This document shows, in pieces, positions 6,346-30,560 of a stretch of 32,000 nucleotides of DNA (position 1 is its first letter; each line of letters begins with the position of its first letter). The DNA is from Candidatus Heimdallarchaeota archaeon (lineage in GTDB: Archaea > Asgardarchaeota > Heimdallarchaeia > Hodarchaeales > Hodarchaeaceae), in NCBI GenBank assembly GCA_048881705.1, contig JBHLSH010000027.1:9563-41562 (forward strand), written 5' to 3'. The notes under the pieces were generated by a model. It did not search any database, was not told the DNA's origin, and saw only the letters and a list, made by a program, of their open reading frames with translations. The position numbers and the translations under genes were made by a program.

Positions 6346-6358
6346 CGGTGATGAGAAG

Positions 6359-6898: not shown

Positions 6899-6926
6899 AC
6901 ACTTATGACTATGGAGACGAAAAATT

Positions 6927-7328
6927 ATGTCCAAAAATGTAAAAGGGCCAATGCAAGCCATTGCCCATATCCTGAGCTCTTATAACAACACCATAATCAC
7001 CCTTACTGATATGACTGGCGCAGAAACCATTGCCAAGTCCTCTGGAGGACAAGTAGTTCGAGCAGACAGGAATCAATCCTCACCTTATGCTGCTATGAAA
7101 GTCGGGCATACCATTGCCCGTGTTGCTAAGGAAAAGGGAATTCAACAGATTGTGGTTAAGGTACGGGCTCCAGGTGGTTCTGGTGCTCGAAATCCTGGCC
7201 CTGGAGCTCAGGCTGCCATCAGAGCCTTGGCCAGGTCAGGCCTACATATTACTCGCATCGAAGAGGTCACACCCATCCCCCACGATAGTACTCGCCAGCG
7301 GGGTGGGCGTCGGGGTCGAAGAGTTTAA
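6927..7328 (+). CDS. rps11: Ribosomal protein uS11
   Basis: [29 protein letters not shown]...[21 protein letters not shown]...VKVRAPGG...[30 protein letters not shown] matches the uS11 pattern. Confidence 0.92.
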
Positions 7329-7357
7329 TTTCATAAGTTTCCCTGAAATCATAGGAT

Positions 7358-15024: not shown

Positions 15025-17283
15025 TTAGAGGTACGAATCAGCAATTTTCTTGACAGTCTTTTTTATTAGACTCTGCGCGCTTTTCCACGTCAATCCTGTT
15101 TTTCCCAGGGTCTGTCCCCAAGTCCTACCTTGAAGAATTCTAGAGACAAGCAACATTTCTTGAGCGGAACTAAGTTTGACAGAGTTTGCTATCACAAAGT
15201 GCATAACCGCCAATTCATACATCGCATCGACCGCGAGCAAGAAGTTTAAGTGCCCATTCAGATAATTGGTAAGCCTTAATCGTGCTGAAGCTGTTAACTT
15301 CGGTGTATAATTCTCAATGGGATAACAACCCTTCAAGATCTGAATAACTAATTCCGGCCGCATTTCGAATAGGGATTGTTTCAGAAGGGCTATGAACTGT
15401 AAGGTAAAATCTGCCGATGCTTGTTCAATAATTCCTTTAGCAGATGAAGAGAGTGGAAGTACAAAAACTATATTCCATTCTCCTGAAACAGACGTCCTTA
15501 TGGGACGAATATGAACCGATAAAAATCCAAATTTTCTCCAAAATTTCACCAATTTGGTTGTTGCTCCGTAACTCACGCCTATCCAGTCGTAATTACCTTT
15601 AAACTTAGTTATGTGCGCTTCGACTGTGAGTCGACCAAATCCTTTTCCTAGCAACTTGGGATGGGTTGCGATGCGCACAATGCGTAGCCCGCGTAGTTTG
15701 GCAAAACTAGATGAAAAATGTCGAACAGCAGTGGATGGAATGAGATTCCCAGGGATAAATTCCCCCATGGCAATTCGTGAGATTTTTTGTTCAGAAAGCC
15801 CCCCTTCTTTGGCTAAATGACTTGCTGCAATGAAATTAGTACCTTTCGGATCTTTATCTTCCAAAAGCCCTAGCAAGAAATGTTGAGCTGAATCTGCCAA
15901 CAATAATAAATCATTTGGCTGATTACGGTAGTGGGCGTATACAAGCAGAGCAAATAAGTTCCTGAGATGATGGATTCCTTGATTTGAGAACAAAAATCTA
16001 GGATCACTATATTCCTGAAGAGTCAGCAGGGTACGATTGATATCTTGTTCCTTAATGTCATTTTTGCTCAGTTCAACATCCAGGAGGAAGGTATCATTTA
16101 GTAATTTTTCAATCAAATCCCCCTCTAGATATCGGATGGGTGTAAACAAATTGAAGATTCGGTGGGGAATGCGTTTTTGGCGGTCTAAATATTGAACTAT
16201 TTTGTGCTGAAAACCTCTTCCAGAGCCTTCATAGCCGTGAATTGTTGAAATCAAAACCTTCTGTGCCTGAATCTGGATAATCGACCTTAATTTTTCGATA
16301 GGAAGGGCCGCTGCTTCATCAACAATAATCAAACTGGCCTTCGTTTGATTTGAAATTTCGCTCGGACTGATATAAGCAATTCTGAGCTTGTCTGAAATAC
16401 GAACATCGGTGATTAGGTTCCTTTCTTTGATAGTCTGAAAATTGACTTGTTTTTCTCGGAGTCCTTTCCCCAAGAATTCGAATAAAACTTGAACATTGGA
16501 TAAATCCGGTGCTGTCACTATCAAATGCCCGAATCGTTGATTCCTTTGATGATCATTGCCAATCAGATGAGAAAGCGTTATCCCAATAGTAGCTGATTTT
16601 CCTCGTCCTCTGTTTGCCACAACGACAGAGCAGCTATTTGGATCGGATGTATCTAACAAAATTCCCGTCAGGGCGGTAATCACTTCTTTTTGATCAGGAG
16701 TAACATCAAACCCATCAATTCTTGCCGTTAAATTTACTTTATGATGCATTGGATTGAATCGACGAAGAATTTCTTGACTAGGTAGATTCTCAACAATACA
16801 ATGGGGATTTTGTTCGATGTTTTCGAGAAACCACCTCAATAGATATGATTTCGGCCTGAACTCCTTCGTAGATGGAATTTGACTTCTGTTTACCCTTAAA
16901 ATCCACTCCTCAGTAGGTAAACCGCAGATGATAACGAGTCCTCCTCCACAAACTGTTTCAATTAACAAGCTCACTTTGTTCGGATGAAATGTCCACCTCA
17001 GATCAAGTACCAGAAAATCTAATGTTTGCCCTAAAATCGGTGTAACATCTTTTGGAGAGATAACATGAACTCGTGTTAAGTATGGTAGGACTGGAAAAGC
17101 TTCATTGAGAATTATCGATTCACTGGGATCCCCCTCAATGATGATTGCCCCCGTAATGCCTCGATTATTTTTCTCGTAAAAATGTTGGAGAAACGCTCCA
17201 ATAGAGTGAGAGAGAACATTTGCATCCTGAAACAGGACAAGACTCCTTTTATATGCTTCATGGTGATTCTGGGACAGGGTCAA
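15025..17283 (-). CDS. tmcA: tRNA(Met)/rRNA cytidine N4-acetyltransferase TmcA (NAT10/Kre33 homolog)
   Basis: Helicase-type Walker A VVANRGRGKSATIG, DEAAALP Walker B, and a GNAT domain (RIATHPKLLGKGFGRL ... FWRKFGF). The size (752 aa) and domain order fit TmcA. TTG start. Confidence 0.88.
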   Translation of the reverse strand: MTLSQNHHEAYKRSLVLFQDANVLSHSIGAFLQHFYEKNNRGITGAIIIEGDPSESIILNEAFPVLPYLTRVHVISPKDVTPILGQTLDFLVLDLRWTFHPNKVSLLIETVCGGGLVIICGLPTEEWILRVNRSQIPSTKEFRPKSYLLRWFLENIEQNPHCIVENLPSQEILRRFNPMHHKVNLTARIDGFDVTPDQKEVITALTGILLDTSDPNSCSVVVANRGRGKSATIGITLSHLIGNDHQRNQRFGHLIVTAPDLSNVQVLFEFLGKGLREKQVNFQTIKERNLITDVRISDKLRIAYISPSEISNQTKASLIIVDEAAALPIEKLRSIIQIQAQKVLISTIHGYEGSGRGFQHKIVQYLDRQKRIPHRIFNLFTPIRYLEGDLIEKLLNDTFLLDVELSKNDIKEQDINRTLLTLQEYSDPRFLFSNQGIHHLRNLFALLVYAHYRNQPNDLLLLADSAQHFLLGLLEDKDPKGTNFIAASHLAKEGGLSEQKISRIAMGEFIPGNLIPSTAVRHFSSSFAKLRGLRIVRIATHPKLLGKGFGRLTVEAHITKFKGNYDWIGVSYGATTKLVKFWRKFGFLSVHIRPIRTSVSGEWNIVFVLPLSSSAKGIIEQASADFTLQFIALLKQSLFEMRPELVIQILKGCYPIENYTPKLTASARLRLTNYLNGHLNFLLAVDAMYELAVMHFVIANSVKLSSAQEMLLVSRILQGRTWGQTLGKTGLTWKSAQSLIKKTVKKIADSYL

Positions 17284-17314
17284 CCAGGCCTCTGCCGGTC
17301 TTGTGGGTCAGAAT

Positions 17315-17884
17315 TTATTGGATTTCGATTTTAGTAACTTTCTTTTTTGTTTTCTCCAATATTTCATCGCAAACTGATATCGCAATCTCGTGTTCCTTTT
17401 TGATGCTCTTTACCTCTTTCAAGACCTTTTTTTGTTCAGAATGGGACAAGGCTTTTTCATCAAGGAGCTTTTGAAGTGTATTCAGGCGGGGAAAACTTGA
17501 ACAACGTAATCGGTACTGGGAAGTCGACTCCCCCTTTGTACGACGAATGAAAGCTGCCACATCAGGTGCAACGCTATAGTACAGTCTAGGTCGTCCTCTA
17601 CGAGATGGTCTATCTCGTCTCTCTTCACCTTTTATTAAATTATGTTTTTTAAGAACCTCTAAATGTCTGATGATCGATTGTGGGTGGTCATCCAGTCTTC
17701 TAACCAGCTCGTTGACAAACCCCTCTCCTGCTGCAAGCTCAGCTAGCATTCGGCGTCTGGTTCCATTTGCCAATAGGTGGAGAATTTCGTCAATTTCTTC
17801 TACATCTAGAAATCCTCGGTTTTCGATCTTAAAGGATAATATTTTCAGTATTAATTCTATTTCACTTAACGTGTCATCAACCAT
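17315..17884 (-). CDS. ArsR/Phr-like winged-helix transcription regulator with C-terminal coiled coil
   Basis: RRRMLAELAAGEGFVNELVRRLDDHPQSIIRHLEVLKKHNLIKGEERRD...RPRLYYSV is an ArsR-type HTH plus wing. The C-terminal K/E-rich helix is a probable dimerisation element. Confidence 0.7.
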   Translation of the reverse strand: MVDDTLSEIELILKILSFKIENRGFLDVEEIDEILHLLANGTRRRMLAELAAGEGFVNELVRRLDDHPQSIIRHLEVLKKHNLIKGEERRDRPSRRGRPRLYYSVAPDVAAFIRRTKGESTSQYRLRCSSFPRLNTLQKLLDEKALSHSEQKKVLKEVKSIKKEHEIAISVCDEILEKTKKKVTKIEIQ

Positions 17885-17895
17885 ATTATGACCTC

Positions 17896-18684
17896 CTACA
17901 CAAAAAACTGGGAATCCGGGTCGCTTGGTTTGTTTTGATCCATTTTGCCTTCTAATGTGCTTGCATAATGGGCTTTGAATTCTTGGGCTTTCTCTTCCAA
18001 TCTACTAAAATTCCCAGTAAATCCCCATTGCTCCGATAAGTGTAATAATAGCGCGTACGACGAAATCGGGTCATACTCTGGGAAAGTATCTACCACAAAC
18101 ACTTCTACTGGGATATTATTTCCCCAATAAGTTAGGAAAGAGCATGCGATCTGTCCACAGAGAGTAAACGAATCACCCGCGGTAGTCATCTCACTTGTTA
18201 CCTCTAAACGCTGTTCATTTGAAGCAATTTTATGTACACGAGGTTTTTTATCGATGGAACGATTACTGTTGTATACCCCATCCACCAACAGAATCTTTGT
18301 GACTTTATGTTGCTGGTAAAAACGAAAGAGCTCCTCTGCTATTTGATATCCAATTGCATCGGGAATGGCAAAATTGGTTGTAGCAAGGAAATAGGGGCGA
18401 TCTCGAATTTCCAAATATTGAATTGTGATTGGAAGTAGTATGTCATTTGAGGACAATTGTACCATTTCGGTCATGTGGTTCGTAAAGAATCCTGCCAATT
18501 TGTTCATTTGTGAGGTCGTGCGTCGAATTTCATGAGCCACCAAATGGCCAACTGAACCATAATACCCCAAAATTTCGATTGCCACGGCACCGACTGGCGG
18601 GACAAATTCGTTTCGAATGAGAAACCTTAGATTTTCCTCTTCTTCCATTTCTTCCAAGAGAGTTTCCACATTCGGTACTTCCAT
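17896..18684 (-). CDS. Hypothetical protein, tentatively PAC2/PbaA-family (proteasome assembly chaperone-like)
   Basis: The ORF is solid, sitting 14 nt after the cdc48 stop and 11 nt before the next gene. The family call rests only on size (262 aa) and an N-terminal pattern, VAIEILGYYGSVGHLVAHEI, resembling the PAC2 G.PG.G.VG..A motif. The C-terminus ends ...DSQFFV. Confidence 0.4.
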   Translation of the reverse strand: MEVPNVETLLEEMEEEENLRFLIRNEFVPPVGAVAIEILGYYGSVGHLVAHEIRRTTSQMNKLAGFFTNHMTEMVQLSSNDILLPITIQYLEIRDRPYFLATTNFAIPDAIGYQIAEELFRFYQQHKVTKILLVDGVYNSNRSIDKKPRVHKIASNEQRLEVTSEMTTAGDSFTLCGQIACSFLTYWGNNIPVEVFVVDTFPEYDPISSYALLLHLSEQWGFTGNFSRLEEKAQEFKAHYASTLEGKMDQNKPSDPDSQFFV

Positions 18685-18698
18685 ATTATATGCACAGT

Positions 18699-20894
18699 CT
18701 AATGGTTTTCATGAGGAGGTCGAATGAAATCAAGCGCTTGAACAACATCAGCAGGCTCTATCTCCAGTTTATACTTTTCAATCAATTTGGATATCGCGTC
18801 TGGTTGAACCCCATCAAGCATCTCCTTTCGATCTTGAAGAAATCGGTTAATAGAGACGAAAGTTGCACGACTTATCAGTCCTTTCAAATCTGCGCCGCTG
18901 AAACCTTCAGTTTTTTTTGCTAAGTCTTTCAATAACACTTGTTTTGATAATGGTTTATTTCGAGTCAGTACACGTAGAATATTCTCTCTCGCGGTTGTAT
19001 CGGGCAGAGGGAGCTCAATTATTCGTTCAAACCTTCCGGGCCTTAAAAGTGCTGGATCAAGCACGGAAGGACGGTTAGTTGCTGCAATAACAATAACATC
19101 CCGTAACTCTTCCAAGCCACTCATTTCCGTCAACAAAGTGGTTACGATACGATCTGAAGCACCCCCATTCAAGCCAGATCCAGAACGAGATGGAGTTAGG
19201 GCATCGATTTCATCAAAGAAAATGATGCAGGGAGCACCCAGACGGGCTTTTCGAAAGGTCTCTTGAATAATTTTTTCGCTCTCCCCCAACCACTTAGAGT
19301 GGACTTCTGATCCCTTTACATAGATGAAATTCCGCGAAACCTCATTTGCGATGGCACGGACAAGTAGGGTTTTCCCAGTTCCAGGTTTTCCAATCAGAAG
19401 GATCCCTCGCGGCGCTTCTGCATCCATATAGTTGAACAGATCAGGATATTTTGCTGGCCATTCGATAATCTCCTTGAGCTCATGCTTAACATCGTCTAAT
19501 CCTCCTACATCTTCCCATGTAACAGTAGGGATTTCGAGGAAAACTTCCCGGAGAGCACTGGGTTTAACCTCCGCTAAGGCATTATTGAAATCCTCTTGTA
19601 AAACAGTTATTTGTTCAATTATTTCAGCAGGAACATCTTCATCCCAAGTTATCTGGGGAAATACTCTCCGAATCGAACGCATAGCAGCTTCCTTGGTTAA
19701 GGAAGCCAAATCGGCACCGACAAATCCATGGGTACGATCAGCCAGTAATTCTAAATCCACTTCATCTGCTAATGGCATTGCTCTAGTATGAATCCCCAGA
19801 ATAACTAAACGACCATCTTTATTGGGTACTCCAATCTCGATTTCACGGTCAAAACGTCCCGGCCGACGAAGCGCGGGATCAATTGCATTGGGCCTATTCG
19901 TTGCTCCAATTACAACTAATTCTCCCCGGCCTTCCAAGCCATCCATAAGCGCCAACAATTGGGATACTACTCGACGTTCAAGTTCCCCTGAACTAGAGTC
20001 ATCCCGTTTGGTGGCTATGCTATCAATTTCGTCAATAAACAGGATACTCGGTGCCTTTTGTCTAGCCTCCTCGAATATATCTCTAATCTTCTGTTCACTC
20101 TCTCCATAAAATTTGGACATGATTTCTGGCCCAGAGACCGTTATAAAATATGCATCAGTTTCATTCGCCACAGCCTTGGCTAGAAGTGTCTTGCCAGTTC
20201 CGGGTGGGCCATGGAGGAGGACTCCTTTTGGAGGTTCTATCCCAAGTCTTTCAAATAGTTGGGGATAGCGCATTGGCAATTCAACCATTTCTCTGATCTT
20301 CTTGATTGTTTCCTCCATTCCCCCAATTTCTTCATATGAAACTTTGGGTACAACCTGCATTTTACTTAAAGTTTCAGAAAAGGAATCAGGAGTCTCTTTT
20401 ACTTCAAATACAGTAGTTTTAACGATATATACTGAGTGTTCTCTTTCTGGGACAATCTTAAGAACTTTATAGTCAATATTTTGTCCCATGTAGGGTACCC
20501 GAAGCACGTCATCAATAGAAATCGCACGGTCTTGAAGAGTCTTTTGAAAATATCCAGTTACGTTACTTATTGTGAAATTAGACAATGGAGTTAGGATGAT
20601 TTTCTCTGCTGGACTGAGGGATACCTTACTAACTGTGACAATATCGTCCAGTCGAACCCCTGCATTTGATCGGGTCGCCGCATCAATCGAAATGGTTAAT
20701 CCATATTCATCGGATTTAAATGCATGCCAAATTACCGCGGTCGTTTTCTTTTCCGTAGGTCCCTCGATCTCTATTATATCACCTGCTGATACCCCTAATT
20801 TGTTCATAATACGTTTTGAAATCCGTGCCCGACCCCGATCAACATCTTGGTAGGCGGCTTCCTTGACTTTTAGCCTAACTGAGTTTGAAGCCAA
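18699..20894 (-). CDS. cdc48: CDC48/VCP/VAT-type AAA+ ATPase (N domain plus D1 and D2)
   Basis: N domain MASNSVRLKVKEA...RGRARISKRIMNKLGVSAGDIIEIEG. Two Walker A motifs (GPPGTGKTLLAKAVA and GKPGTGKTLLVRAIA). Two Walker B motifs (ILFIDEIDS, IIFFDEIDA). SRH regions (VIGATNRPNAIDPALRRPGRFDR, VIAATNRPSVLDPALLRPGRFER). TTG start. The C-terminus ...RPPHENH has no HbYX motif. Confidence 0.93.
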   Translation of the reverse strand: MASNSVRLKVKEAAYQDVDRGRARISKRIMNKLGVSAGDIIEIEGPTEKKTTAVIWHAFKSDEYGLTISIDAATRSNAGVRLDDIVTVSKVSLSPAEKIILTPLSNFTISNVTGYFQKTLQDRAISIDDVLRVPYMGQNIDYKVLKIVPEREHSVYIVKTTVFEVKETPDSFSETLSKMQVVPKVSYEEIGGMEETIKKIREMVELPMRYPQLFERLGIEPPKGVLLHGPPGTGKTLLAKAVANETDAYFITVSGPEIMSKFYGESEQKIRDIFEEARQKAPSILFIDEIDSIATKRDDSSSGELERRVVSQLLALMDGLEGRGELVVIGATNRPNAIDPALRRPGRFDREIEIGVPNKDGRLVILGIHTRAMPLADEVDLELLADRTHGFVGADLASLTKEAAMRSIRRVFPQITWDEDVPAEIIEQITVLQEDFNNALAEVKPSALREVFLEIPTVTWEDVGGLDDVKHELKEIIEWPAKYPDLFNYMDAEAPRGILLIGKPGTGKTLLVRAIANEVSRNFIYVKGSEVHSKWLGESEKIIQETFRKARLGAPCIIFFDEIDALTPSRSGSGLNGGASDRIVTTLLTEMSGLEELRDVIVIAATNRPSVLDPALLRPGRFERIIELPLPDTTARENILRVLTRNKPLSKQVLLKDLAKKTEGFSGADLKGLISRATFVSINRFLQDRKEMLDGVQPDAISKLIEKYKLEIEPADVVQALDFIRPPHENH

Positions 20895-20950
20895 AACTAG
20901 TCTACCTTTGATTCAAATGTTTTGTTGAAATTGATGTACCAGGGTGAATT

Positions 20951-21574
20951 TTATCCCACGGGAACTTTGGTACTGTGTTCTTTGTCAGTCGATTTCTTCA
21001 ATTCGACTTCAAGGACACCATTTTTAAATTTTGCAGCGGCTGATTCAGGAACAATGAGGCAAGGGAGATCCAATTCTTTGTAATACTTTCTGCTCATATC
21101 TTCAGAGCTTGCCTGAACTAGGAGACTATTCTCGGTTGCGGATAAATCAATATTCTCTTTTTGCACCCCAGGAATTTCCGCAATCACTCTCACAACATCA
21201 GTATCCTCAATTACATCAACCAAAGGCTCTCGTTCAGCAGAAGGTTGAAATCCTGTTCTTCCTGTCACTTGACGGGGATTATTGCCAAACCGTTCGATAT
21301 GTGGTCGTCCATCGGGACCCGTGGTCATTCGAAAACCCCATACAAAGCCTGGTGGATTATTCTCAGCATCCTGTGGAGTGTTCATACTGAACCTTCTGAA
21401 CAAATCCTCTAGGAAATAATCCATCTTGTTGAAAATATCGTCAAAAGATACGCCACCGAATTGGTCAAAAAAATTCTCGAAAATATCGTCGAACGGGCTT
21501 CTCCCGCGCCTACGTCGGGGATACCGCCCGCGGCGGTCATCTTCATCATTAGGGTCAGTTGTTGGATCAGACAT
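20951..21574 (-). CDS. hsp20: Small heat-shock protein (Hsp20/alpha-crystallin domain) with long charged N-terminal extension
   Basis: PLVDVIEDTDVVRVIAEIPGVQKENIDLSATENSLLV...YYKELDLPCLIVPESAAAKFKNGVLEVELKK is a canonical ACD pattern. Confidence 0.88.
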   Translation of the reverse strand: MSDPTTDPNDEDDRRGRYPRRRRGRSPFDDIFENFFDQFGGVSFDDIFNKMDYFLEDLFRRFSMNTPQDAENNPPGFVWGFRMTTGPDGRPHIERFGNNPRQVTGRTGFQPSAEREPLVDVIEDTDVVRVIAEIPGVQKENIDLSATENSLLVQASSEDMSRKYYKELDLPCLIVPESAAAKFKNGVLEVELKKSTDKEHSTKVPVG

Positions 21575-21811: not shown

Positions 21812-22591
21812 ATGGGTGAATTTTTGTCAGAGCGTCCATTGATCGTTTTAATGACCGATTTTGGCAACGATGCTTATACAGGAATCATGAAAGGTCGGAT
21901 TATTCAGATCAATCCAGCGGCCAGAATTGTAGCTCTTACAAACCACATTAAAAAGCACTCGATAAGACAAGGAGCGTTTATTTTACAGAAGTCTTACAGA
22001 TACTTCCCTTATGGATCCATATTCTTGGTTGTGGTAGATCCAGGCGTGGGAAGCATAAGGAAAGCCGTAGTAGCGCAAACCGAGAACTATTTTTTCATTG
22101 CTCCTGATAATGGCATACTCTCACCCGTAATTTCGGAAAGCAGAGCTTTGGATATAATCAAGCTACATATTCCATCTGACGCATCAACGACATTTCACGG
22201 ACGCGATGTATTCGCTCCTGCCGCCGCCAAAGTTAGTCTGAACTATTCCCTTCTAAACCTTGGGCCGAAAACCAAACTGGATAAGAACATCCGCTTTTAC
22301 TGGGATCCTGGATCTTTTACTGGAGAGGTAATTTTCAAGGATGAATTTGGTAACATTATCACAAACATACCTAAGCTCACTAAATTATACAGTACTGAGA
22401 AATTCATTGTCATTACAGAATTGTTTGAAGGTGAAATGCCATTAAAGATCTCTTATTCAGAAGGTTCTACTCATGAACCCTTTCTAATCTTCTCAAGTTT
22501 CGACACATTGGAAATTGCCCTCCGAGAAGGAAGAGCTTGTGATCTTATACCTGTTAGTGCAGGAGATCGCGTGACGATAACCCCTCTCTAA
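21812..22591 (+). CDS. SAM hydrolase / SAM-dependent halogenase family protein (DUF62, S-adenosyl-L-methionine hydroxide adenosyltransferase-like)
   Basis: IVLMTDFGNDAYTGIMKGRI...FLVVVDPGVGS.R...APDNG.LS...FHGRDVFAPAAAK is the conserved DUF62 motif set. Confidence 0.8.
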   Translation: MGEFLSERPLIVLMTDFGNDAYTGIMKGRIIQINPAARIVALTNHIKKHSIRQGAFILQKSYRYFPYGSIFLVVVDPGVGSIRKAVVAQTENYFFIAPDNGILSPVISESRALDIIKLHIPSDASTTFHGRDVFAPAAAKVSLNYSLLNLGPKTKLDKNIRFYWDPGSFTGEVIFKDEFGNIITNIPKLTKLYSTEKFIVITELFEGEMPLKISYSEGSTHEPFLIFSSFDTLEIALREGRACDLIPVSAGDRVTITPL

Positions 22592-22784
22592 TAATCATCA
22601 ACAAAGAACGAAAAAACTGCGCCTCTTGGCGTTTCCAATCTTCTTAGATTGTAAGGAGCATAACCGCTAGTTTTAATTGCTCATGGGAGATCAAATAGAT
22701 AATATCAAATAATCGAAAAGCCACATCTCGCGAAACCCCTACATTTCAGAAACCGACCCCATTAATATCAATGGAAGTGAAAAA

Positions 22785-23540
22785 TTGAGTTTAGTCGAAA
22801 GAATACGTAAGATGGAACTATCACTTGATGAAATAATACCTAAGTTCCAAGGAAGGTTAGAACTAGTTCGTAAGGATCTAAAGGATTTAATAACTGGCAT
22901 AGATGATTTGAAAACGCTTATTGCAGATAATCGTCGAAAATCAAATGATTATACAAGAGAGATTTCTGATCTATCTAATGACCTTCAAGCTTTTAGAAAT
23001 GAAATCACCGAGATCGAGAAAGAGATTTCCCGATCACAAGATATGGCCAATACCGTCAATATGGAGACACAGGAATTAAATAGCGAACTGATGGCGGAGA
23101 GAAACCGGTTAGGAACTCTCGAAGGAGAGAAAAACGCGCTAGAACACAGTTTAAGTGAGCTCGAACGGGAGAAATCTGGATTACAGGAAATTCATGATCA
23201 ATTCAAGCCGAAATTTGAAAAAGAAGTCGGCTTAATCAATGAACGATACGCTTCGCTCAAGAAGAAACATGATTCGCTTGGTTATCGTTTCCAAGCTATG
23301 CGTATCCTCTGTTCTGAGGGTTATCTCGCGACCCCAGAGGTGAATATAGTAAGGTACCTCGCTATGAAGCCGTCTTCGACATCAAGCGTGACTGAAATTA
23401 AATCTACGCTTGGCGTTGATCCAACAGCGTTATCTACGGTTCTTCATGGCCTGGCCACACGGCAGGTACTTAAATTGGACGAGTCCTCAGGTAATGTTAC
23501 AATACTTGCCAAAATTGATCTATTTGACGAGGTGAAATAA
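22785..23540 (+). CDS. Coiled-coil protein with C-terminal winged-helix-like domain (paralog 1), uncharacterised
   Basis: About 170 aa of heptad-rich E/K/L/N/R sequence, then VRYLAMKPSSTSSVTEIKSTLGVDPTALSTVLHGLATRQVLKLDESSGNVTI (helix-turn-helix plus wing pattern). TTG 22785 or ATG 22812. Confidence 0.65.
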   Translation: MSLVERIRKMELSLDEIIPKFQGRLELVRKDLKDLITGIDDLKTLIADNRRKSNDYTREISDLSNDLQAFRNEITEIEKEISRSQDMANTVNMETQELNSELMAERNRLGTLEGEKNALEHSLSELEREKSGLQEIHDQFKPKFEKEVGLINERYASLKKKHDSLGYRFQAMRILCSEGYLATPEVNIVRYLAMKPSSTSSVTEIKSTLGVDPTALSTVLHGLATRQVLKLDESSGNVTILAKIDLFDEVK

Positions 23541-23542
23541 TA

Positions 23543-24277
23543 ATGGATACCGATACACTACGCGAGAAGTTCATTCGATCCGAGGAAGCGCTCAACAAAC
23601 TCGCAGATGACATCAAACAGCTGGTTTCCAGTCAGAGTCAAGAACTACGAGATTCTCGTGATTACCTTGAAACCTTGATAGGAGAAAAAGAAGCTGTTGA
23701 CTCGCAAATCAAAGAACAGGAAGCTAAAATTGCATCATATCAAGAAGATATCTCCAAACAAGGTAATTTAAAAGAAGCTTTAGTTAATAAACGATCTATG
23801 GTTTCAGAGGATAGCCAAAATAAGAAGATTAGGCTAGAGGAACTTCATCATGAATTAACCACAGTAAAAGATTCTGTTACTTCCACCAATCGTGTAATAG
23901 AACAATTAAGGATGGAAATTACACAGAAACGTGAGCATATTGGAGAGTTAATCCAGGCAAACCAAGAATTAGAAGAAAAATTAAAAATTGAGATGGATGT
24001 AAAGGTGACCGAGACGGGAAATCTAGAACAAGCTGTAGCTAATATGGAATCAGAAAATGCTGTAATCTCATATCTTCTTGAAGAGTCGGCGGAGGATATT
24101 CCTGAAGTGGATATTTTAGCCTCAGTAATGCAATTAGGTGAGGCCAGTAGAGATCAATTGAAACAATCCCTCGAAGGAATTGTGTCACCGGTCATGCTTA
24201 CACGAACGCTCGGACGGATGGCTGAAAAAGGAATCCTTAACTTCGATGAGTCTCGTGATATTATTAGATATCAGTGA
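23543..24277 (+). CDS. Coiled-coil protein with C-terminal winged-helix-like domain (paralog 2), uncharacterised
   Basis: Same architecture as the upstream gene, with C-terminus ILASVMQLGEASRDQLKQSLEGIVSPVMLTRTLGRMAEKGILNFDESRDIIRY. The ATG is 2 nt after the upstream stop (TAATAATG). Confidence 0.65.
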   Translation: MDTDTLREKFIRSEEALNKLADDIKQLVSSQSQELRDSRDYLETLIGEKEAVDSQIKEQEAKIASYQEDISKQGNLKEALVNKRSMVSEDSQNKKIRLEELHHELTTVKDSVTSTNRVIEQLRMEITQKREHIGELIQANQELEEKLKIEMDVKVTETGNLEQAVANMESENAVISYLLEESAEDIPEVDILASVMQLGEASRDQLKQSLEGIVSPVMLTRTLGRMAEKGILNFDESRDIIRYQ

Positions 24278-25349
24278 GGCGGAGATTATCACGATTTCCG
24301 AACTGAGTAATAAACCCGAAAATTTGCATGAAGATTGGGTTTTCCATCGAACTCTTTCATCAGGAAAAACCCAGTGTCTGGTATGTGCCCGCCATTGTCA
24401 CTTGATTTCGGGAGAGACTGGATGGTGTGGTGCACGGATGTGTCAGGAAGGGAAAGTTGTCCCTAGAACGTATGGTTTGGTCTCTTCCGTTGCTGTTGAC
24501 CCGATTGAGAAAAAACCCCTTTACCACTTTTTACCTGGAACGGGTATTCTTAGTATTGGTGCTACTGGGTGTAATATGGGATGCCTTCATTGTCAAAACC
24601 ATTCTATATCCCAGAGTCGCTCTATCGCTCATCTCCGAAGGGTATCTCCTCGTGAACTCGTAAATCACGCATTGGAAAGGAATTTGCCCTCAATCGCTAG
24701 TACATATAATGAACCCATGATTGCGTTTGAATATGTTAGGGATATTGGGAGGATTGCCCATCAGGACGGATTGAAAATGGTGGTTGTCGATAATGGCTAC
24801 ATTAACAGGGGGTTGGCAGAAAGACTCACAGCTTATCTAGATGGGGCTAATATTGACGTTAAAGGGTTTTCTGACGAATTCTACTGGGAAATCTGTGATG
24901 TGAAGGCATGGAAGCTCGTTTTGAAGACCTGTGAGACTTTTTTCAACCGGGGCGTGCATTTAGAGATAACTAACCTCATTATCCCCACTAAGAATGATGA
25001 TATGGAGATGATCAGGGGTATGTGTGAATGGATCGTGACCAAACTCAGCCCAAATGTACCCCTTCACTTCTCAGCGTTTCACCCAGATTATAGATTGAGG
25101 GATCTACCCTTTACTCCCATGAAAACATTGGAAGATGCCTTAACGGTTGCCAAGGACGTAGGGCTTAATTATGTATATCTTGGGAATGTTAGAGGTCGTA
25201 AAGGTAACGACACTTACTGCCATAACTGTCACAGCCATTTAATCTCTCGTACCGGGTATTATACGAGGATACTTGGAATTACTGAAGGTAGGTGTGCTAA
25301 ATGCAACACGAAAATCCCAGGAATCTTCTCTAATTCAGATCCGGCTTAA
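24246..25349 (+). CDS. AmmeMemoRadiSam-system-type radical SAM enzyme (PflA-related)
   Basis: CLVCARHCHLISGETGWCGAR...YGLVSSVAVDPIEKKPLYHFLPGTGILSIGATGCNMGCLHCQNHSISQS carries the N-terminal Cys cluster plus the CxxxCxxC radical SAM motif typical of this family. A C-terminal CHNCHS...CAKC zinc ribbon is present. The start is uncertain: ATG 24246 overlaps the previous gene by 32 nt, and the track gives 24180. Confidence 0.8.
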   Translation: MSLVILLDISEAEIITISELSNKPENLHEDWVFHRTLSSGKTQCLVCARHCHLISGETGWCGARMCQEGKVVPRTYGLVSSVAVDPIEKKPLYHFLPGTGILSIGATGCNMGCLHCQNHSISQSRSIAHLRRVSPRELVNHALERNLPSIASTYNEPMIAFEYVRDIGRIAHQDGLKMVVVDNGYINRGLAERLTAYLDGANIDVKGFSDEFYWEICDVKAWKLVLKTCETFFNRGVHLEITNLIIPTKNDDMEMIRGMCEWIVTKLSPNVPLHFSAFHPDYRLRDLPFTPMKTLEDALTVAKDVGLNYVYLGNVRGRKGNDTYCHNCHSHLISRTGYYTRILGITEGRCAKCNTKIPGIFSNSDPA

Positions 25350-25771
25350 ATAACTCTAATAGGGAGTTCTATTACCTTTCCCATACGTAGTGCGAATGCT
25401 TTGAGTTCTGGATCGGGTCCGTCTCCTCCGATTAACCAAGTGTAGGGATAAGGCCAATATTTCATGTAATGTATATCCTGCTGAGAAGGGGCGAGCTGGG
25501 CATTCTCGGGATGACTATGAAATATTCCTACCAACTCCCTTCCCTCTTTCTCGTATTTTATAATATGCTGATAGAATATTTCATAATCGATACTGAAACG
25601 AGTAGGTGATTCATCTATATTGAGCATTGGCTGGAAATCTGTTACATTAACATGATTTTGGGGTTCCCATAATCCAAAGACGAGTCCTACAACTTCAATA
25701 GGTTGATTTTCTTTTAGTAATGATATAATTTCTTGATAACAAGAACTAAAAATTGATATAGAAGGTGACAC
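25346..25771 (-). CDS. JAMM/MPN+ metalloprotease (Rpn11/JAB1-like isopeptidase)
   Basis: EVVGLVFG (catalytic Glu region) and the JAMM motif FHSHPENAQLAPSQQD (H-x-H-x7-S-x2-D). The GTG start is preceded by a strong SD (AAGGAGGTGGTTAT-GTG). The stop codon shares the tetranucleotide TTAA (25346-25349) with the convergent radical SAM gene. Confidence 0.85.
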   Translation of the reverse strand: MSPSISIFSSCYQEIISLLKENQPIEVVGLVFGLWEPQNHVNVTDFQPMLNIDESPTRFSIDYEIFYQHIIKYEKEGRELVGIFHSHPENAQLAPSQQDIHYMKYWPYPYTWLIGGDGPDPELKAFALRMGKVIELPIRVI

Positions 25772-25820
25772 ATAACCACCTCCTTTATTTTGTCATATGA
25801 AGAGCCTAGGAACGTGTTTT

Positions 25821-27209
25821 TTATGGATATTCAGGATGAACACTATGCGGGGGAATAATCTTATCAGGAGAGTTCAAGGCTTCAATATACCGCTGCTGAG
25901 CCGCAGGTTCGCCGTGAATTGGCAAAATTTTGGTTGGACTTGTATATTTCGCGACCTCGAGGAGTCCTCCCTGTGACGCATGGCCAGAGAATTGGAACCG
26001 CTTGACCTCCAATTCAAGGTTAACATTATAGAGGCCTCCAAAACCGTTGTTCAGCAAAATTTGTCTCTGCCCTGCGGCTATATCTGCTCCTACAGTCCCC
26101 TCAACTTGATAGCCCACAATATAAAGGCCATTTTTTGGATCACTACCCAAATCGAACTTTCCCAGATACTCATAAATTGGACCGCCCTCTATCATACCCG
26201 ATGTCGTCAATATGATAACTGGTTGTTCCTGATTTGCCAGGAATGCCCGTTTCTTATTTCTTCCTCCAGTTGGAAGGATCTCGTCAATTTTGTGGATACC
26301 TTCATGGTCAAACGGTGATTTGTATCCATTCTCTTTTAGAAAACTAAGTAATCGTTTGGATACCCATTTTTCGGTTAAATACCGGCCATAGATCTTGTTG
26401 ATATCAAGAATCATGCCATCTATCCAGAGCTGATATGAATCTAGAAACGTATCAAACTCCTGGATCAAGTAGGTTTGAATTTCTTGTGAACGACCCAATG
26501 CAAATGAGGGTATTATCGCTTTTCCCCCTCGGGAATAACATTGTAATAATTTCTGCGTTAACTTTGAGGTTGTCTCCTTGCGTGATGGCAAGGGTCGAGT
26601 AGCATTGGTAGTTTCTGTAATCAATATGTCGATGGGTTCATCCAAAGAATCATTAATGAAAATCGGATCATGAAAAGGCGTTTTGGCGTCATTTATGTCT
26701 CCCGTATAGAAAATGCGGGTTCCATCCCAATCAAGCAGAATGCACGCGCTACCTAGTATGTGACTAGCATCATAAAATTCAGCGGAAATGCCATCCAAAA
26801 GCCGAAAGGATTGGTTGTAATTGTGAGGAACAGAATTTCGAAGGGCGTAATTGAGATGACGAAGACTATAATGAGTTTCTCCCTCGATTTTTAAATGGTC
26901 TTTCCATAAGATTTTCACGATATCTTTTGTAGGTGCCGTTAGATGGATGTCACCACCATATCCCCAACGATATAGGGCTGGAACATATGCTGAATGGTCT
27001 ATATGAGCGTGGGAAACCAATACGACATCTATATCGGGGCTGAGGTCATCGAGCTGAGCGGGTGGAGACGATCGTTGATCTGATCTTCTCGGATGAAGTT
27101 GAATACCTGCATCCAAGATGATCCGTCTATCCCTGTCTGAAATCATAATACATGATTTCCCAACGGAGTCTGCGGCCCCAAGCACTGTAACTGTGAGCAT
27201 TTCGATCAA
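25821..27209 (-). CDS. beta-CASP family metallo-beta-lactamase ribonuclease (aCPSF2 / archaeal RNase J-like, no KH domains)
   Basis: LGAADSVGKSCIMI..., HxHxDH as VLVSHAHIDHSAYVP, beta-CASP region (ILITETTNA, IPSFALGRSQE), and C-terminal FSGHASQGGL...ILPIHGE. An ATG at 27200 is an alternative to TTG 27209. Confidence 0.85.
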   Translation of the reverse strand: MIEMLTVTVLGAADSVGKSCIMISDRDRRIILDAGIQLHPRRSDQRSSPPAQLDDLSPDIDVVLVSHAHIDHSAYVPALYRWGYGGDIHLTAPTKDIVKILWKDHLKIEGETHYSLRHLNYALRNSVPHNYNQSFRLLDGISAEFYDASHILGSACILLDWDGTRIFYTGDINDAKTPFHDPIFINDSLDEPIDILITETTNATRPLPSRKETTSKLTQKLLQCYSRGGKAIIPSFALGRSQEIQTYLIQEFDTFLDSYQLWIDGMILDINKIYGRYLTEKWVSKRLLSFLKENGYKSPFDHEGIHKIDEILPTGGRNKKRAFLANQEQPVIILTTSGMIEGGPIYEYLGKFDLGSDPKNGLYIVGYQVEGTVGADIAAGQRQILLNNGFGGLYNVNLELEVKRFQFSGHASQGGLLEVAKYTSPTKILPIHGEPAAQQRYIEALNSPDKIIPPHSVHPEYP

Positions 27210-27334
27210 GCTATAAGGCGTATGATAGAGGAACGGTGGTTAATCAGGGTGAAAACTGGAGATCCACTGTTTTCTCTGCTGAAGCGACTAGAGAATTCCC
27301 ACAATAAGAATTTTCGGTTCTACATTTCGAACCA

Positions 27335-28105
27335 ATGGTTCGTCTAAGGAAAAATCTATATAACCAAAGAATTCTCTCCCTCCTTAGGTGTGCTTTGATG
27401 CCAGTCGACCCACAACAAATACCGCTTTCAGGAATCCCCATTGGCATTTTTTTGATGTTTTTGGGTTCACTCCTGGGACTAATTCCTTTGTATGACCTTG
27501 GATTTATAATATTCCTTGGTTCATTAGCATTAGTGTTTATTCAATGGATTAGTAGCGGGGGTATTGCAGAAATGTTAAATTGGCTTCCATTGATTCTGAT
27601 TCTGGCAATTGTCTTAACGCTTTCGTCAGATTTCGTGAGTCAATCACCTGAAACTCAAATTTTTACATGGCCTTTGATACTCGTGGTTTTAGTGGTGATC
27701 CTTGGTTTCATGTTCGCCCAAGGAGGGGATCTAAGTTTTATTATGCCTTTTCTACCATTTTTATTAGGAATTGGTATAATTGGAGTGGTGGGCGGGGAAT
27801 TATTGTGGCAAGACGCATTTAGGGGTTTAGCTTATAGTATTGGCTTTCTAGGGATTGTTGTTGTGCTTATTTGGCTGCGAGTCCGTAAAACCCAACGTAT
27901 GACACCCATAGTCGGGGACAAGGAACATATGATTGGAAAAACAGGACTAACTCTTAGTTTGATATCCCCTGATGTTGAAGGTCGCGTGAGGGTTGGAGGG
28001 ACAACTTGGAAGGCCCAATCCGAGGTTAAAATCTATGAGAATGAGCCAATTCAAGTCGTTGGTATCGAGGGCTTAGTTCTCAAAGTCAAACCAAAATCAG
28101 GATAA
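27335..28105 (+). CDS. NfeD-family membrane protein (TM region plus C-terminal OB-fold)
   Basis: Several TM helices followed by MIGKTGLTLSLISPDVEGRVRVGGTTWKAQSEVKIYENEPIQVVGIEGLVLKVKP, the NfeD C-terminal pattern (G..G.....L.P.G.V...G..W.A.S......G..V.V....G..L.V). The start is uncertain. Confidence 0.7.
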   Translation: MVRLRKNLYNQRILSLLRCALMPVDPQQIPLSGIPIGIFLMFLGSLLGLIPLYDLGFIIFLGSLALVFIQWISSGGIAEMLNWLPLILILAIVLTLSSDFVSQSPETQIFTWPLILVVLVVILGFMFAQGGDLSFIMPFLPFLLGIGIIGVVGGELLWQDAFRGLAYSIGFLGIVVVLIWLRVRKTQRMTPIVGDKEHMIGKTGLTLSLISPDVEGRVRVGGTTWKAQSEVKIYENEPIQVVGIEGLVLKVKPKSG

Positions 28106-28227
28106 CCTCTACTTCCTTGTTTTTTCGCTACTGTCCGTGTCAACGATCCCCCGGAAATTATATATTAGTCAGGATAAAATAATATCTATCGGATCAGAAT
28201 CACGATTTTGGATCTGTGACGAGTCAA

Positions 28228-28301
28228 GGGCCGGTGGTCTAGCTCGGTATGACGGCTCCCTCACACGGAGCAGGTCGATGGTTCAAATCCGTCCCGGCCC
28301 A
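28228..28301 (+). tRNA. tRNA-Val(CAC), intron-less
   Basis: Hand-folded. Acceptor GGGCCGG/CCGGCCC, discriminator A. D arm with AGCUCGGUA loop. Anticodon stem GCUCC/GGAGC with loop CU-CAC-AC. Variable loop AGGUC. T arm GAUGG-UUCAAAU-CCGUC. Confidence 0.9.
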
Positions 28302-28322
28302 TTTTCTTTTTTGGATGGTGAA

Positions 28323-30560
28323 TTATGTGGAAGATTCAAATGCATCCAAAATATACGAATATATGGTTTTTTCCTCTCCTGACGATTTGGCGAACAATCG
28401 TCGAACAATTAGCTCAGGCGTACTAGCTGCATATTGATAATATACAGGGGTACGATCTACCAACAGCTCTAAATCCTCTGAAAGTCCTTGAGCTTCAATT
28501 CCATCAATCCTTAGAGGCTCTTTGCTGTATTTTGCAATTTCTTGAGCGAGATGAGTGACGAAAATCCCCACAGAATGAGGTGATCGTCCTAATAAATCAA
28601 GAAAGGCGGCGATTACACGGGCAGATGCCCCCGGTTCAGAGATACTCTCCATTTCGTCTGCTAGAACCAAACGAGAATGCGGACTCATAATCATCTGCGA
28701 GAGGGTCTGTAACGTAGTTTCAAAAGCACCAGCATCCATCTGGCCTGCTGCCTTACGATAGTAATGGAGTTCCTTGAATCCCCCCAACAACGCTTTTTCA
28801 CACGGAATTGGGAGTCCCATCTGACCAAGGATTACCATTACGGCAAGTGAAACGATTAAAGTTGTCTTGCCTCCGCTATTGGCACCAGAAAGTAAGACAA
28901 TGCGTTCTCCGCTCACAACTCCATCGATCCTTCCAACTTCCCCTACTGCATAGGATACTGGCTGAACCTTTGCTCCGCCTTGTAGCTCCTGCTGGGTGAG
29001 AAACAGGTTACGACCGTTTTTAATTAATAATCCAGTTTTCGGAGATTCCCCAAGCTGAGGTAAGATCAATTGATATTCTGAAGCGAATTTTCCGAGCATA
29101 AAGAGGTAATCAAGTTCCAACATGTAATTTAATGCTTGTTTGGCAATGTTTTCATATTGTTTGAGTGTTTTGGCCAATCTAGTCTTTAGCTCAAAGGATT
29201 TGATGGCACGTCGTTGTCGAAGGTATGTCGTTAACCGGAAAACAATATCCTCAACGGGATCTACGGGATATCGAAGTTCCCGTGGAAATATTCCTACAAG
29301 GTATTCAATTTCCTCGTCCTGGAGGTCGAGGGCCTTGATAAGACTTTCTTCCGCTTTATTTATGATCTCTTCAACTGCCATAAAGAGTTCGTCATCCAAG
29401 TATTCTCGAAGGTTCGTTCGACCACTTTCGGGAGCGTATTGGGGATCTTCGGATGACATCCCCTTAATGAGAGCTAGTATTTTTTCTCCTCCGAGCTCAA
29501 CTGTAGACTGTTGGAGCTTTTTCTCAAGAGCCTCATTAAGCCCGATAAGAACTTCATCGAGTTTAGCTTCAAATAGCGTTTCTGCCCGTAACAAACGGGA
29601 GTATTCCACATTTAAGTCTGAGGTTGGTTCACCAGATTCTTCCAGATTCCCCAGCTGTTCTCCCATTTCTCTTAACATCTCGAGATCGAGATTTTCGATA
29701 TAGACACTTAACGCGGATGACGGTAGGGTTTGAAGGAGGTGGCTAAGGCCTGCAATTGATTCAAGCGTTCGCTTGTTTCTAGCGAAAAAACCTAGGGTTT
29801 TTTCCGGAACAATCTGAACTAGATCATTCCGGGCCGACTCGGCGACCGTCACAACATTGGGAAGACTGTCATCGAGAAGGATATCAGAGCCAATCCAGAT
29901 AATCTCATCATATCCTTTTGTATAATCGCTTATGCGCTCGATGTCATCAATCAGAGTAACCTCACAATGATAACCTACATCGGATGTGGAGAGATCGTTA
30001 AATAAATCTTTGTCGGGGGTGACAATTAATCTTGATGCAGTGTCAAGGCGTGTCTTTTGTTCCTTAAGAGGAGCTAAATTCCGCAAAAGTGTGTCATATT
30101 CCTTGAAAGAGTGAGGGGATGCCCCGATTAGTGATGCCAATTGTATTCCCCTATCAGCGACATTCTGACGGTTCCTGATTTTATCGTGTGCTGAAATAGG
30201 GAGGGGAAAGTAGAGATACAATTTTGAGCGAGAATATAGTGTATTTGCAAATTTAGCGATAATTTCAATCGTTTGATTGTAGATACGAATTGCATCCTCT
30301 GTTTTCAAGAAATTCCGAATATCTTCTCCCGTTTCCTGGAAATGCAGATTGCGGCACAAGCTTAAAGCGAATTTTTCCCCGATTCCTTCAATAGCTGAGA
30401 GTTCAGCTATCCGTGATTCGCGTAATGCCAGTAACACGGCAGCCTCACTTCCAAATGCGGCTACGAGCCTATCTGCCACAGAGGGCCCAATCCCACGAAT
30501 ATCTCGAAGGTTTGTTACACTCAAAGTCTGTTCCTTTCGCTTGGCTATCTTTTTAAACAT
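28323..30560 (-). CDS. MutS-family ATPase (archaeal MutS2/MutS5-like, no Smr domain) with two N-terminal helix-hairpin-helix motifs
   Basis: HhH motifs LRDIRGIGPSVADRL and LSAIEGIGEKFALSL. MutS domain V Walker A LLSGANSGGKTTLIVSLAVMVILGQMGLPIP. Walker B LVLADEMESISEPG. THL motif FVTHLAQE. Confidence 0.8.
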   Translation of the reverse strand: MFKKIAKRKEQTLSVTNLRDIRGIGPSVADRLVAAFGSEAAVLLALRESRIAELSAIEGIGEKFALSLCRNLHFQETGEDIRNFLKTEDAIRIYNQTIEIIAKFANTLYSRSKLYLYFPLPISAHDKIRNRQNVADRGIQLASLIGASPHSFKEYDTLLRNLAPLKEQKTRLDTASRLIVTPDKDLFNDLSTSDVGYHCEVTLIDDIERISDYTKGYDEIIWIGSDILLDDSLPNVVTVAESARNDLVQIVPEKTLGFFARNKRTLESIAGLSHLLQTLPSSALSVYIENLDLEMLREMGEQLGNLEESGEPTSDLNVEYSRLLRAETLFEAKLDEVLIGLNEALEKKLQQSTVELGGEKILALIKGMSSEDPQYAPESGRTNLREYLDDELFMAVEEIINKAEESLIKALDLQDEEIEYLVGIFPRELRYPVDPVEDIVFRLTTYLRQRRAIKSFELKTRLAKTLKQYENIAKQALNYMLELDYLFMLGKFASEYQLILPQLGESPKTGLLIKNGRNLFLTQQELQGGAKVQPVSYAVGEVGRIDGVVSGERIVLLSGANSGGKTTLIVSLAVMVILGQMGLPIPCEKALLGGFKELHYYRKAAGQMDAGAFETTLQTLSQMIMSPHSRLVLADEMESISEPGASARVIAAFLDLLGRSPHSVGIFVTHLAQEIAKYSKEPLRIDGIEAQGLSEDLELLVDRTPVYYQYAASTPELIVRRLFAKSSGEEKTIYSYILDAFESST

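Follow-up and report, generated by a model that had tools for sequence, protein, structure and literature searches.

What is the conserved unit at a locus where two genes of unfamiliar architecture run straight into a gene for a radical S-adenosylmethionine (SAM) enzyme? The question is raised by a stretch of 32,000 nucleotides from a Candidatus Heimdallarchaeota archaeon of the order Hodarchaeales (contig JBHLSH010000027.1, positions 9,563 to 41,562), which is called the window here and whose first letter is position 1 of all coordinates given for it. Two adjacent genes on its forward strand, CC1 and CC2, each encode a predicted long coiled coil followed by a winged helix, and they are followed by the reading frame of an enzyme of the AmmeMemoRadiSam type. 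The original prediction, made from the letters alone, joined the three genes into one candidate system. After a computational follow-up, the reading towards which we lean is a two-gene module of Asgard archaea, in which CC1 and CC2 would form a parallel heterodimer that serves as a fixed-length tether and of which the radical SAM enzyme is not an obligate component.

A conserved and translationally coupled gene pair

The open reading frame (ORF) list places CC1 at 22785..23540 (+), with a TTG start and 251 aa, and CC2 at 23543..24277 (+), with an ATG start and 244 aa. The stop codon of the former (TAA, 23538-23540) and the start codon of the latter (23543) lie where the original prediction had put them. 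Are these real genes? CC1 has 13 close homologues and CC2 has 77, nearly all of the latter being 243-245 aa long. Because more than 30 loci have orthologues of conserved length and position, both are real genes, and a reading of them as chance ORFs is ruled out on the same ground.

A second question is whether the two genes belong together. In 29 of 29 loci with readable upstream DNA, labelled as Hodarchaeales, Baldrarchaeia or Promethearchaeota, a CC1-like ORF of ∼240-286 aa lies directly 5' of the CC2-like gene; two further loci, where runs of N mask the upstream DNA, stand outside this count. The distance from the CC1 stop to the CC2 start is -1 to +49 nt over the 29 loci and -1 to +4 nt in Hodarchaeales. 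The Shine-Dalgarno sequence of CC2 in the window, GAGGTGA (23529..23535, +), sits within the last codons of CC1, and in almost all Hodarchaeales orthologues AAGGAGGT, which encodes the CC1 tail ...KEV*, is the CC2 ribosome-binding site. The translational coupling that had been proposed is thus borne out by the spacing and by a Shine-Dalgarno sequence inside the upstream gene. These two features together are the classic signature of the equimolar co-production of subunits of one complex, and judged from them it is very likely that CC1 and CC2 are made together. The conserved unit, as far as the compared loci can tell, is the gene pair and not the pair plus the radical SAM gene.

The C-terminal tail of CC1 has the pattern ...DLF-x-K/E-E-V*, encoded by ...AAGGAGGT..TAA; it occupies positions 23517-23540 of the window and is found at the same site in loci L002-L031. 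Since the codons of the tail hold the CC2 Shine-Dalgarno sequence, part of the seeming conservation of this stretch of protein is a constraint at the RNA level.

As for the start of the operon, a Shine-Dalgarno-like GGAAGTGA (22773..22780, +) can be read directly 4 nt 5' of the TTG of CC1, and the CC1 orthologues have GGAGG or GAGGA at an equal distance 5' of their ATG. The upstream alignments reveal a TATA-like box directly 5' of CC1 in one subgroup, so that the pair appears to have its own promoter. A conserved TTTTCGAATATTTTTTATA, ∼65 nt 5' of the CC1 ATG in L002, L004 and L028-L031 (a B3_Heim-like subgroup), is likely a promoter with a B recognition element (BRE) and TATA box. In these alignments, no palindrome or operator 5' of the operon is shared among the orthologues, and a promoter and terminator scan with bacterial consensus sequences was uninformative, the host being an archaeon.

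Distribution and length constraint

How widely is the pair distributed? Proteins identical to those of the window are annotated in a Candidatus Heimdallarchaeota metagenome-assembled genome. The close homologues all come from metagenome-assembled genomes labelled Heimdall, Hod, Hermod, Thor or Promethearchaeota, and they cluster as Hodarchaeales. An exhaustive hidden Markov model (HMM) search with the CC2 profile against 1.84 billion cluster representatives returned 328 matches at E <=1e-3. Among the best 150 of these, about 45 align through the winged helix and are relatives over their full length (237-254 aa), and the remainder are giant coiled-coil proteins that match the rod only and count as noise. 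The named members of the divergent groups belong to Baldrarchaeia, Promethearchaeota, the "Asgard group" and Heimdallarchaeota. By these matches, CC1-CC2 is a module with members in several Asgard classes.

Beyond its own clade, the window CC2 shares 12-26% identity with other family members. Length is held tightly: 45 of the 46 family members compared have 242-254 aa, and the other has 237 aa. CC2 keeps to 242-251 aa even where identity is about 16-25%.

A predicted long rod and C-terminal winged helix

AlphaFold2 (AF2), run with family alignments, gives both proteins the same plan. CC1 is modelled as one continuous helix over residues 3-176 (22791..23312, +; mean predicted local distance difference test score, pLDDT, 84) and CC2 as one over residues 3-182 (23549..24088, +; mean pLDDT 88, above 90 along the rod), each followed by a canonical winged helix. 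At 0.15 nm per residue, the rod of either chain is predicted to measure ∼26 nm. A heptad register runs through more than 100 residues of each chain and shifts once or twice on the way. The earlier description of about 170 aa of coiled coil plus a winged helix therefore stands in the models, while the word "uninterrupted" does not strictly hold for the heptads, given these shifts.

Conservation is unevenly spread along the chains. In the alignments, the N-terminal ∼80 residues of CC1 and ∼62 residues of CC2 are kept, as are the winged helix and its junction with the rod in both, and the middle of the rod is variable. A near-invariant acidic junction, FLLEESAEDIPEVDIL, stands directly before the CC2 winged helix. 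The rods of the window proteins are strongly acidic.

Are the two chains related to each other? By BLASTP the match is marginal (E 6e-4), and by profile-profile comparison with hhalign it is clear: a probability of 97.2% and E 3.8e-11, colinear over 210 columns that include the winged helix. Because this match runs colinear through the winged helix, CC1 and CC2 are paralogues, as had been claimed.

The winged helix covers residues 184-240 in CC1 (23334..23504, +) and residues 187-243 in CC2 (24101..24271, +), with the order H-S-H-H-S-S in both models. Foldseek finds its best matches among MarR, ArsR, Fur and IclR (E 4e-3 to 4e-2, probability ∼1.0), and Z-alpha and cullin WHB stand beside them. 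A profile built from 33 family C-termini matches the ZitR/AdcR MarR regulators best in the PDB (E 5e-5), and 17 of the 33 C-termini match Pfam MarR individually, the best at E 2.3e-7. The window proteins themselves remain below this level: CC1 matches MarR_2 at E 0.0055 with 17.3 bits, under the gathering cutoff of 27, and CC2 has no match at E 0.01. The C-terminal domain is consequently a divergent winged helix of the MarR/TrmB type that is sub-threshold for Pfam in the window proteins. Its recognition helix H3 carries a conserved Arg-Thr. Searched with the winged-helix alignment, a database of 5.8 billion proteins returned three Hodarchaeales fragments only.

A proposed heterodimer as tether

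Paralogous, coupled chains with long coiled coils invite the question of how they pair. Heptads were assigned by the Viterbi algorithm, and g-e' charge pairs were counted at the parallel, full-overlap, in-phase offset, which was chosen by register match and not by score. The pairing of CC1 with CC2 comes out net favourable by 0.15-0.35 per position, with z = 2.0-3.8 against shuffles of the e and g positions, in 12 of the 14 testable pairs; one Baldrarchaeia pair and another distant pair are among the positive ones. For CC1 with itself the score is at most 0 in the majority of pairs, and antiparallel hetero-pairings, even at their best, are lower in the majority as well. The charge analysis is supportive of a CC1-CC2 heterodimer, not decisive. 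On the strength of this count, the heterodimeric rod or adaptor suggested in the original prediction is still the most economical reading.

How might such a module work? CC1 and CC2 would be produced in equal amounts via translational coupling and would assemble into a parallel, in-register heterodimeric coiled coil, a rod of 26 nm. This would bring the two winged helices together at the C-terminal end, where they would form a pseudo-dimeric MarR-like head, and the conserved N-terminal segments of both chains next to each other at the opposite end. The rod would act as a fixed-length tether, spacer or adaptor between two binding activities, the winged-helix end holding a ligand (DNA or a protein partner) and the N-terminal end a second partner. 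We infer heterodimerisation and the parallel orientation; the tether or spacer role is suggested by the conserved ends, the variable middle and the tightly held length.

The search for a known family

Does the architecture already have a name? Searches of Pfam, NCBIfam and the PDB with the full proteins, and also with the rod and winged-helix pieces, placed full-length CC1 and CC2 in no family; what they returned was coiled-coil noise far below the cutoffs, such as the ATG16 model at 31 bits (cutoff 34). Both full models, compared with the PDB by Foldseek, drew generic winged-helix matches only, at E 4e-3 or weaker, and no specific family, and literature searches found no description of the CC1/CC2 family. 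The earlier statement that the architecture fits no named family is thereby upheld, including for the two placements that it had singled out as contrary outcomes: there is no match to ScpB or another SMC accessory protein and no full-length TrmB-type placement.

Several candidate identities were tried and rejected. An SMC, Rad50 or archaea-specific SMC-related (ASRP) identity fails on scores of 39 bits for ASRP (cutoff 300) and 35 bits for SMC (cutoff 567), which come from the coiled coil only, and an SMC-like ATPase fails because neither chain has a Walker A/B ATPase head domain. The label "chromosome segregation ATPase" that these proteins carry at JGI is a coiled-coil artefact. An accessory of the ScpB or ScpA kleisin type has no Pfam or NCBIfam match even at E 0.1-10, and each chain has a single winged helix. 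ESCRT-III/CdvB has no Snf7 match in its favour, and the AF2 models have one uninterrupted helix and no alpha1-alpha2 hairpin. A PCI-MPN pairing with the neighbouring JAMM protein was also dismissed, since neither CC1 nor CC2 is a solenoid of helical repeats and since the JAMM gene is linked to them by block synteny. CC1/CC2 is, then, an undescribed family of several Asgard classes that combines known modules by tethering winged helices on a coiled coil.

The radical SAM gene and its neighbourhood

The third gene is a member of the AmmeMemoRadiSam family, as had been proposed. Its product matches TIGR04337 with 357.2 bits (cutoff 220) over model positions 3-336 of 349 and Pfam Radical_SAM at E 1.2e-15, and it carries CLVCARHC (24375-24398), the radical SAM cluster motif CX3CX2C, read in translation as CNMGCLHC (24570..24593, +), and a C-terminal CX2C...CX2C. 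The gene was placed at 24246..25349 (+) from these matches and motifs, a comparison of start codons and synteny; it encodes 367 aa from ATG 24246, with an alternative start at TTG 24324. Its reading frame (24180..25349) does overlap the 3' end of CC2, and the overlap is specific to the window and a 90%-identical sister. ATG 24246, which yields a 32-nt overlap, is conserved only in this closest relative; the ORFs of the other orthologues open after the CC2 stop and start a few codons before a conserved EW.F.R.L.SGK.QC.

The AmmeMemoRadiSam family is defined by genome-level co-occurrence with AMMECR1 and Memo and not by adjacency, and homologues of these two are usually dispersed in archaeal genomes. 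Both had been reported as missing from the window, and indeed no AMMECR1 or Memo domain is found in any of its ORFs of >=110 aa (32 kb).

Is the enzyme tied to the pair? The synteny sample consisted of the 19 Hodarchaeales loci returned by a scan of GTDB species representatives. In 19 of 19 the gene order, read by tblastn with the window proteins, is CDC48 and Hsp20 (-), then CC1, CC2 and the radical SAM gene (+), JAB and beta-CASP (-), NfeD (+) and a MutS-like gene (-). In the window together with these 19 species-level genomes, the interval between CC2 and the radical SAM gene ranges from the 32-nt overlap to a gap of ∼100 nt, and the enzyme is probably co-transcribed with the pair in Hodarchaeales. 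The whole flanking block of ∼12 kb is collinear in the same 19 species, and because it is equally conserved, the adjacency of enzyme and pair carries little specific weight.

The block as a whole is a curiosity of its own. Followed as far as the 5-6-kb flanks, the series TmcA/NAT10, helix-turn-helix (HTH), PAC2, CDC48, Hsp20 ... JAB, beta-CASP, NfeD, MutS-like (window 15025-21574 and 25346-30560) is collinear across Hodarchaeales loci. This synteny persists though protein identities drop to ∼40-60%, which is unusually stable for archaea.

Outside this block the picture changes. Locus L012, which branches deeply, reads beta-CASP, JAB, the radical SAM gene on the opposite strand and then CC1-CC2, so that the pair is inverted relative to a radical SAM-JAB-beta-CASP group in which the JAMM/JAB gene stays with the enzyme. 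In the Baldrarchaeia loci L005 and L006 the pair comes after SufC/SufBD and before a convergent P-type ATPase, with no radical SAM neighbour. The gene after the pair encodes a gelsolin-domain protein in L007, a protein of no recognised kind in L008, an Arf/Ras-like GTPase in L009, unrelated proteins in L010 and L011, and a giant subtilase in L032 and L033 (at least two loci, from a metagenome scan); none of these loci has a radical SAM gene there.

A particular case is CP070760.1 (L001, 6743-7786, and also L020), an otherwise complete Heimdallarchaeota chromosome in which CC2 is intact and two ORFs, of 128 aa and 205 aa, make up what should be one radical SAM orthologue. The split is a frameshift or pseudogene, or else an error of sequencing; letters N hide part of the CC1 orthologue.

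The other two neighbours serve as context. The DUF62 / SAM hydroxide adenosyltransferase gene (21812..22591, +) is confirmed by Pfam upstream of the pair, between Hsp20 and CC1. Among the Hodarchaeales loci it is present only in the window and in the 90%-identical sister L013, which places it outside anything conserved; it is a recent lineage-specific insertion. The JAMM/MPN gene (Prok-JAB by Pfam; 25346..25771, -) is convergent with the radical SAM gene, and the stops of the two do overlap in TTAA at 25346-25349, as had been noticed.

The claim of a conserved link between the pair and the enzyme is accordingly divided: it holds in the 19 Hodarchaeales species and not elsewhere. As a general system, the pair plus the enzyme does not survive the synteny of the whole block, the inversion in L012 and the occurrence of the pair with no radical SAM neighbour in Baldrarchaeia, Promethearchaeota and other Asgard contigs. 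The core of the Asgard-wide module does not appear to include the enzyme, which is rather a lineage-specific neighbour in a frozen syntenic block. What had been proposed as a coupling of the pair with the radical SAM, DUF62 and JAMM genes amounts to synteny of a particular lineage, not to a conserved system.

Weighing the readings

Several observations weigh against a heterodimeric tether that is independent of the enzyme. The AF2 models of CC1 and CC2 are models of monomers. The charge count is a crude one, and the Hodarchaeales pairs, being related, are not independent cases in phylogenetic terms; moreover, the signal is missing in three distant pairs (L007, L009 and L012), and L010 and L011 have no in-phase offset. 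A DNA-binding head is weakened by the charges: the net charge of the winged helices is -1.1 as a family mean and -2 to -4 in the window, the isoelectric point (pI) of the CC2 winged helix is 4.5, and the wing is acidic, with no conserved basic residue across the family alignment. No third gene recurs beside the pair across loci to name a partner at either end. Finally, the radical SAM gene lies within ∼100 nt of the pair in every Hodarchaeales genome examined, so that a functional link in that order could be real.

This last point leads to the model of the original prediction, in which the pair and the AmmeMemoRadiSam-type enzyme are one Hodarchaeales system and the rod is a substrate, recruiter or scaffold of the enzyme. 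The genes share a strand at the short intervals given above, CC1, CC2 and the radical SAM gene abut exactly in L003, and pair and enzyme remain neighbours even after the inversion in L012. Yet the ∼12-kb neighbourhood is as conserved as this adjacency in the same genomes, and in L012 it is the convergent JAB-beta-CASP partners that the enzyme keeps, with the pair on the other strand. To this can be added the loci beyond Hodarchaeales that have the pair and no such enzyme (L005-L011, L032 and L033), the split orthologue beside an intact CC2 in CP070760, and the rods themselves, which showed no recognisable target motif, whether of the glycyl-radical type or another. A single system of this kind is, in our judgment, distinctly unlikely.

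Could the proteins instead act on DNA, as MarR-type regulators that dimerise by a long coiled coil or as architectural or segregation proteins that bridge or anchor it with paired winged helices, for which Hop2-Mnd1, Sso10a/Sul10a, RacA and KfrA would be the analogues? The sequence type speaks for this idea, given the Pfam MarR matches of the C-termini and the ZitR/AdcR match of their profile, and so do the Arg-Thr of the recognition helix and the fact that the CC1-like partner is basic in some lineages (pI 8.9-9.4, winged-helix charge up to +3.9). The case for a DNA-binding head is weakened, however, because the winged helices are neutral to acidic and the wing is devoid of a conserved basic residue; the window rods are acidic as well, the upstream regions share no operator, and a simple repressor would not need a length-constrained 26-nm rod. 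We regard this explanation as unlikely. The same acidity fits protein binding, and with it an adaptor of the cytoskeleton or of membrane trafficking, whose winged helices would be protein-binding modules as in ESCRT-II, CdvB and cullins. Some loci have suitably eukaryote-like neighbours (the gelsolin gene of L007 at 6867-7562, the Arf/Ras-like GTPase gene of L009 at 5823-6389, and a Roadblock/LC7 gene nearby in L011 at 1649-2083), and the coiled-coil plus winged-helix proteins arCOG09748 and arCOG11741 have been described as ESCRT-associated building blocks (PMC10936438). These neighbours recur in no second lineage, though, no Vps4 or ESCRT-III gene stands beside the pair in any locus examined, and the proteins have neither a Snf7 match nor a helical hairpin in their models, so that this adaptor is the most doubtful of the readings.

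The fixed-length CC1-CC2 tether thus remains the reading that we prefer. A bolder version of it can be imagined, an ancestral, Asgard-specific ruler: a 26-nm tether with its winged helices on chromatin or a protein lattice and its N-terminal end on a cytoskeletal or membrane-remodelling machine, controlled or modified by the radical SAM enzyme in Hodarchaeales. This version is a speculation to which we give very little credence. If true, the ruler would be a prokaryotic forerunner of the eukaryote-style rod-shaped linkers that connect DNA to cellular structures.

Other features of the window

The rest of the window holds a few further proteins of interest. The 561-aa ORF at 3321-5006 (-) has no Pfam match at E 1e-3. 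A 437-aa protein (13559-14872, -) has a C-terminal RING finger (Prok-RING_1 / zf-RING_2) as its sole recognisable feature, and together with the nearby JAMM, CDC48 and PAC2 genes it lends the region a ubiquitin-like or proteostasis flavour. A third protein, of 631 aa (1342-3237, +), combines a PIN domain, a T2SSE/PilT-type ATPase and a KH domain.

Significance

Why does a pair of small genes deserve attention? No known archaea are more closely related to eukaryotes than Asgard archaea, above all Hodarchaeales, and in view of this kinship, families with no assigned function that are conserved across Asgard classes are candidates for unexplored cell biology. A coupled two-gene unit, a length constant almost to the residue over deep divergence, and fixed ends with a free middle together bear the mark of a structural ruler or tether. 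A reading that was attractive but went too far is corrected at the same time: the radical SAM, DUF62 and JAMM neighbours define no system with the pair. From a practical point of view, both proteins are small and soluble-looking, and their expression should be straightforward.

Comparison with known systems

The nearest relatives by fold are the regulators of the MarR/TrmB type (PF01047, PF12802 and PF01978), which have the same H1-S1-H2-H3-S2-S3 fold and the same ...PV..TRT...L.EKGLI... sequence pattern as the C-terminal ∼60 residues of CC1 and CC2. The differences are as telling. These regulators have ∼140-150 aa and dimerise by flanking helices, whereas CC1 and CC2 place a helix of ∼180 residues before a winged helix at the extreme C-terminus. 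MarR is a homodimer, whereas in the proposed CC1-CC2 complex two different chains would provide the two winged helices. The wing of MarR has a conserved basic residue; that of CC1 and CC2 does not, and the domain is acidic. As for the enzyme, it agrees with AmmeMemoRadiSam (TIGR04337) in its full-length HMM match, CX3CX2C motif, N-terminal Cys cluster and C-terminal Cys pairs.

A survey of ESCRT systems in archaea, published in 2024, described coiled-coil plus winged-helix proteins next to Vps4/ESCRT-III in Euryarchaea (PMC10936438). In arCOG09748, arCOG11741 and CdvB, as in CC1 and CC2, a coiled coil comes together with a winged helix at the C-terminus, and theirs is regarded as protein-binding. 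The proteins of the euryarchaeal ESCRT loci have extra globular or duplicated winged-helix domains, and they are set apart from CC1 and CC2 by their description and by their gene neighbours: in more than 30 loci the pair has no Vps4 or ESCRT-III neighbour.

Winged helices on rods are also known from proteins that organize DNA. Sso10a/Sul10a, RacA and KfrA carry winged-helix DNA-binding heads on a rigid coiled-coil rod, which sets a distance or anchors DNA. They differ from CC1 and CC2 in forming homodimers and in having the winged helix at the N-terminus; the rod is either shorter, as in Sso10a, or free in length, and they are not known to come as paralogous gene pairs. No sequence relation to CC1 or CC2 was detected.

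The last comparison is with Hop2-Mnd1, a heterodimer of eukaryotic meiotic recombination. Its two paralogous chains of ∼200-230 aa have one winged helix and long coiled coils each, and they form a parallel heterodimer in which the two winged helices are juxtaposed to bind DNA. The Hop2 and Mnd1 families (TBPIP and Mnd1) are not among the best 25 Pfam matches per query, nor among the PDB matches; no search brought up a sequence similarity, and homology is not claimed and has no support. The layout differs too: Hop2-Mnd1 has an N-terminal winged helix and three kinked zippers, whereas CC1 and CC2 have a C-terminal winged helix and one uninterrupted helix. Even so, Hop2-Mnd1 is the closest analogue of the working principle proposed for CC1-CC2.

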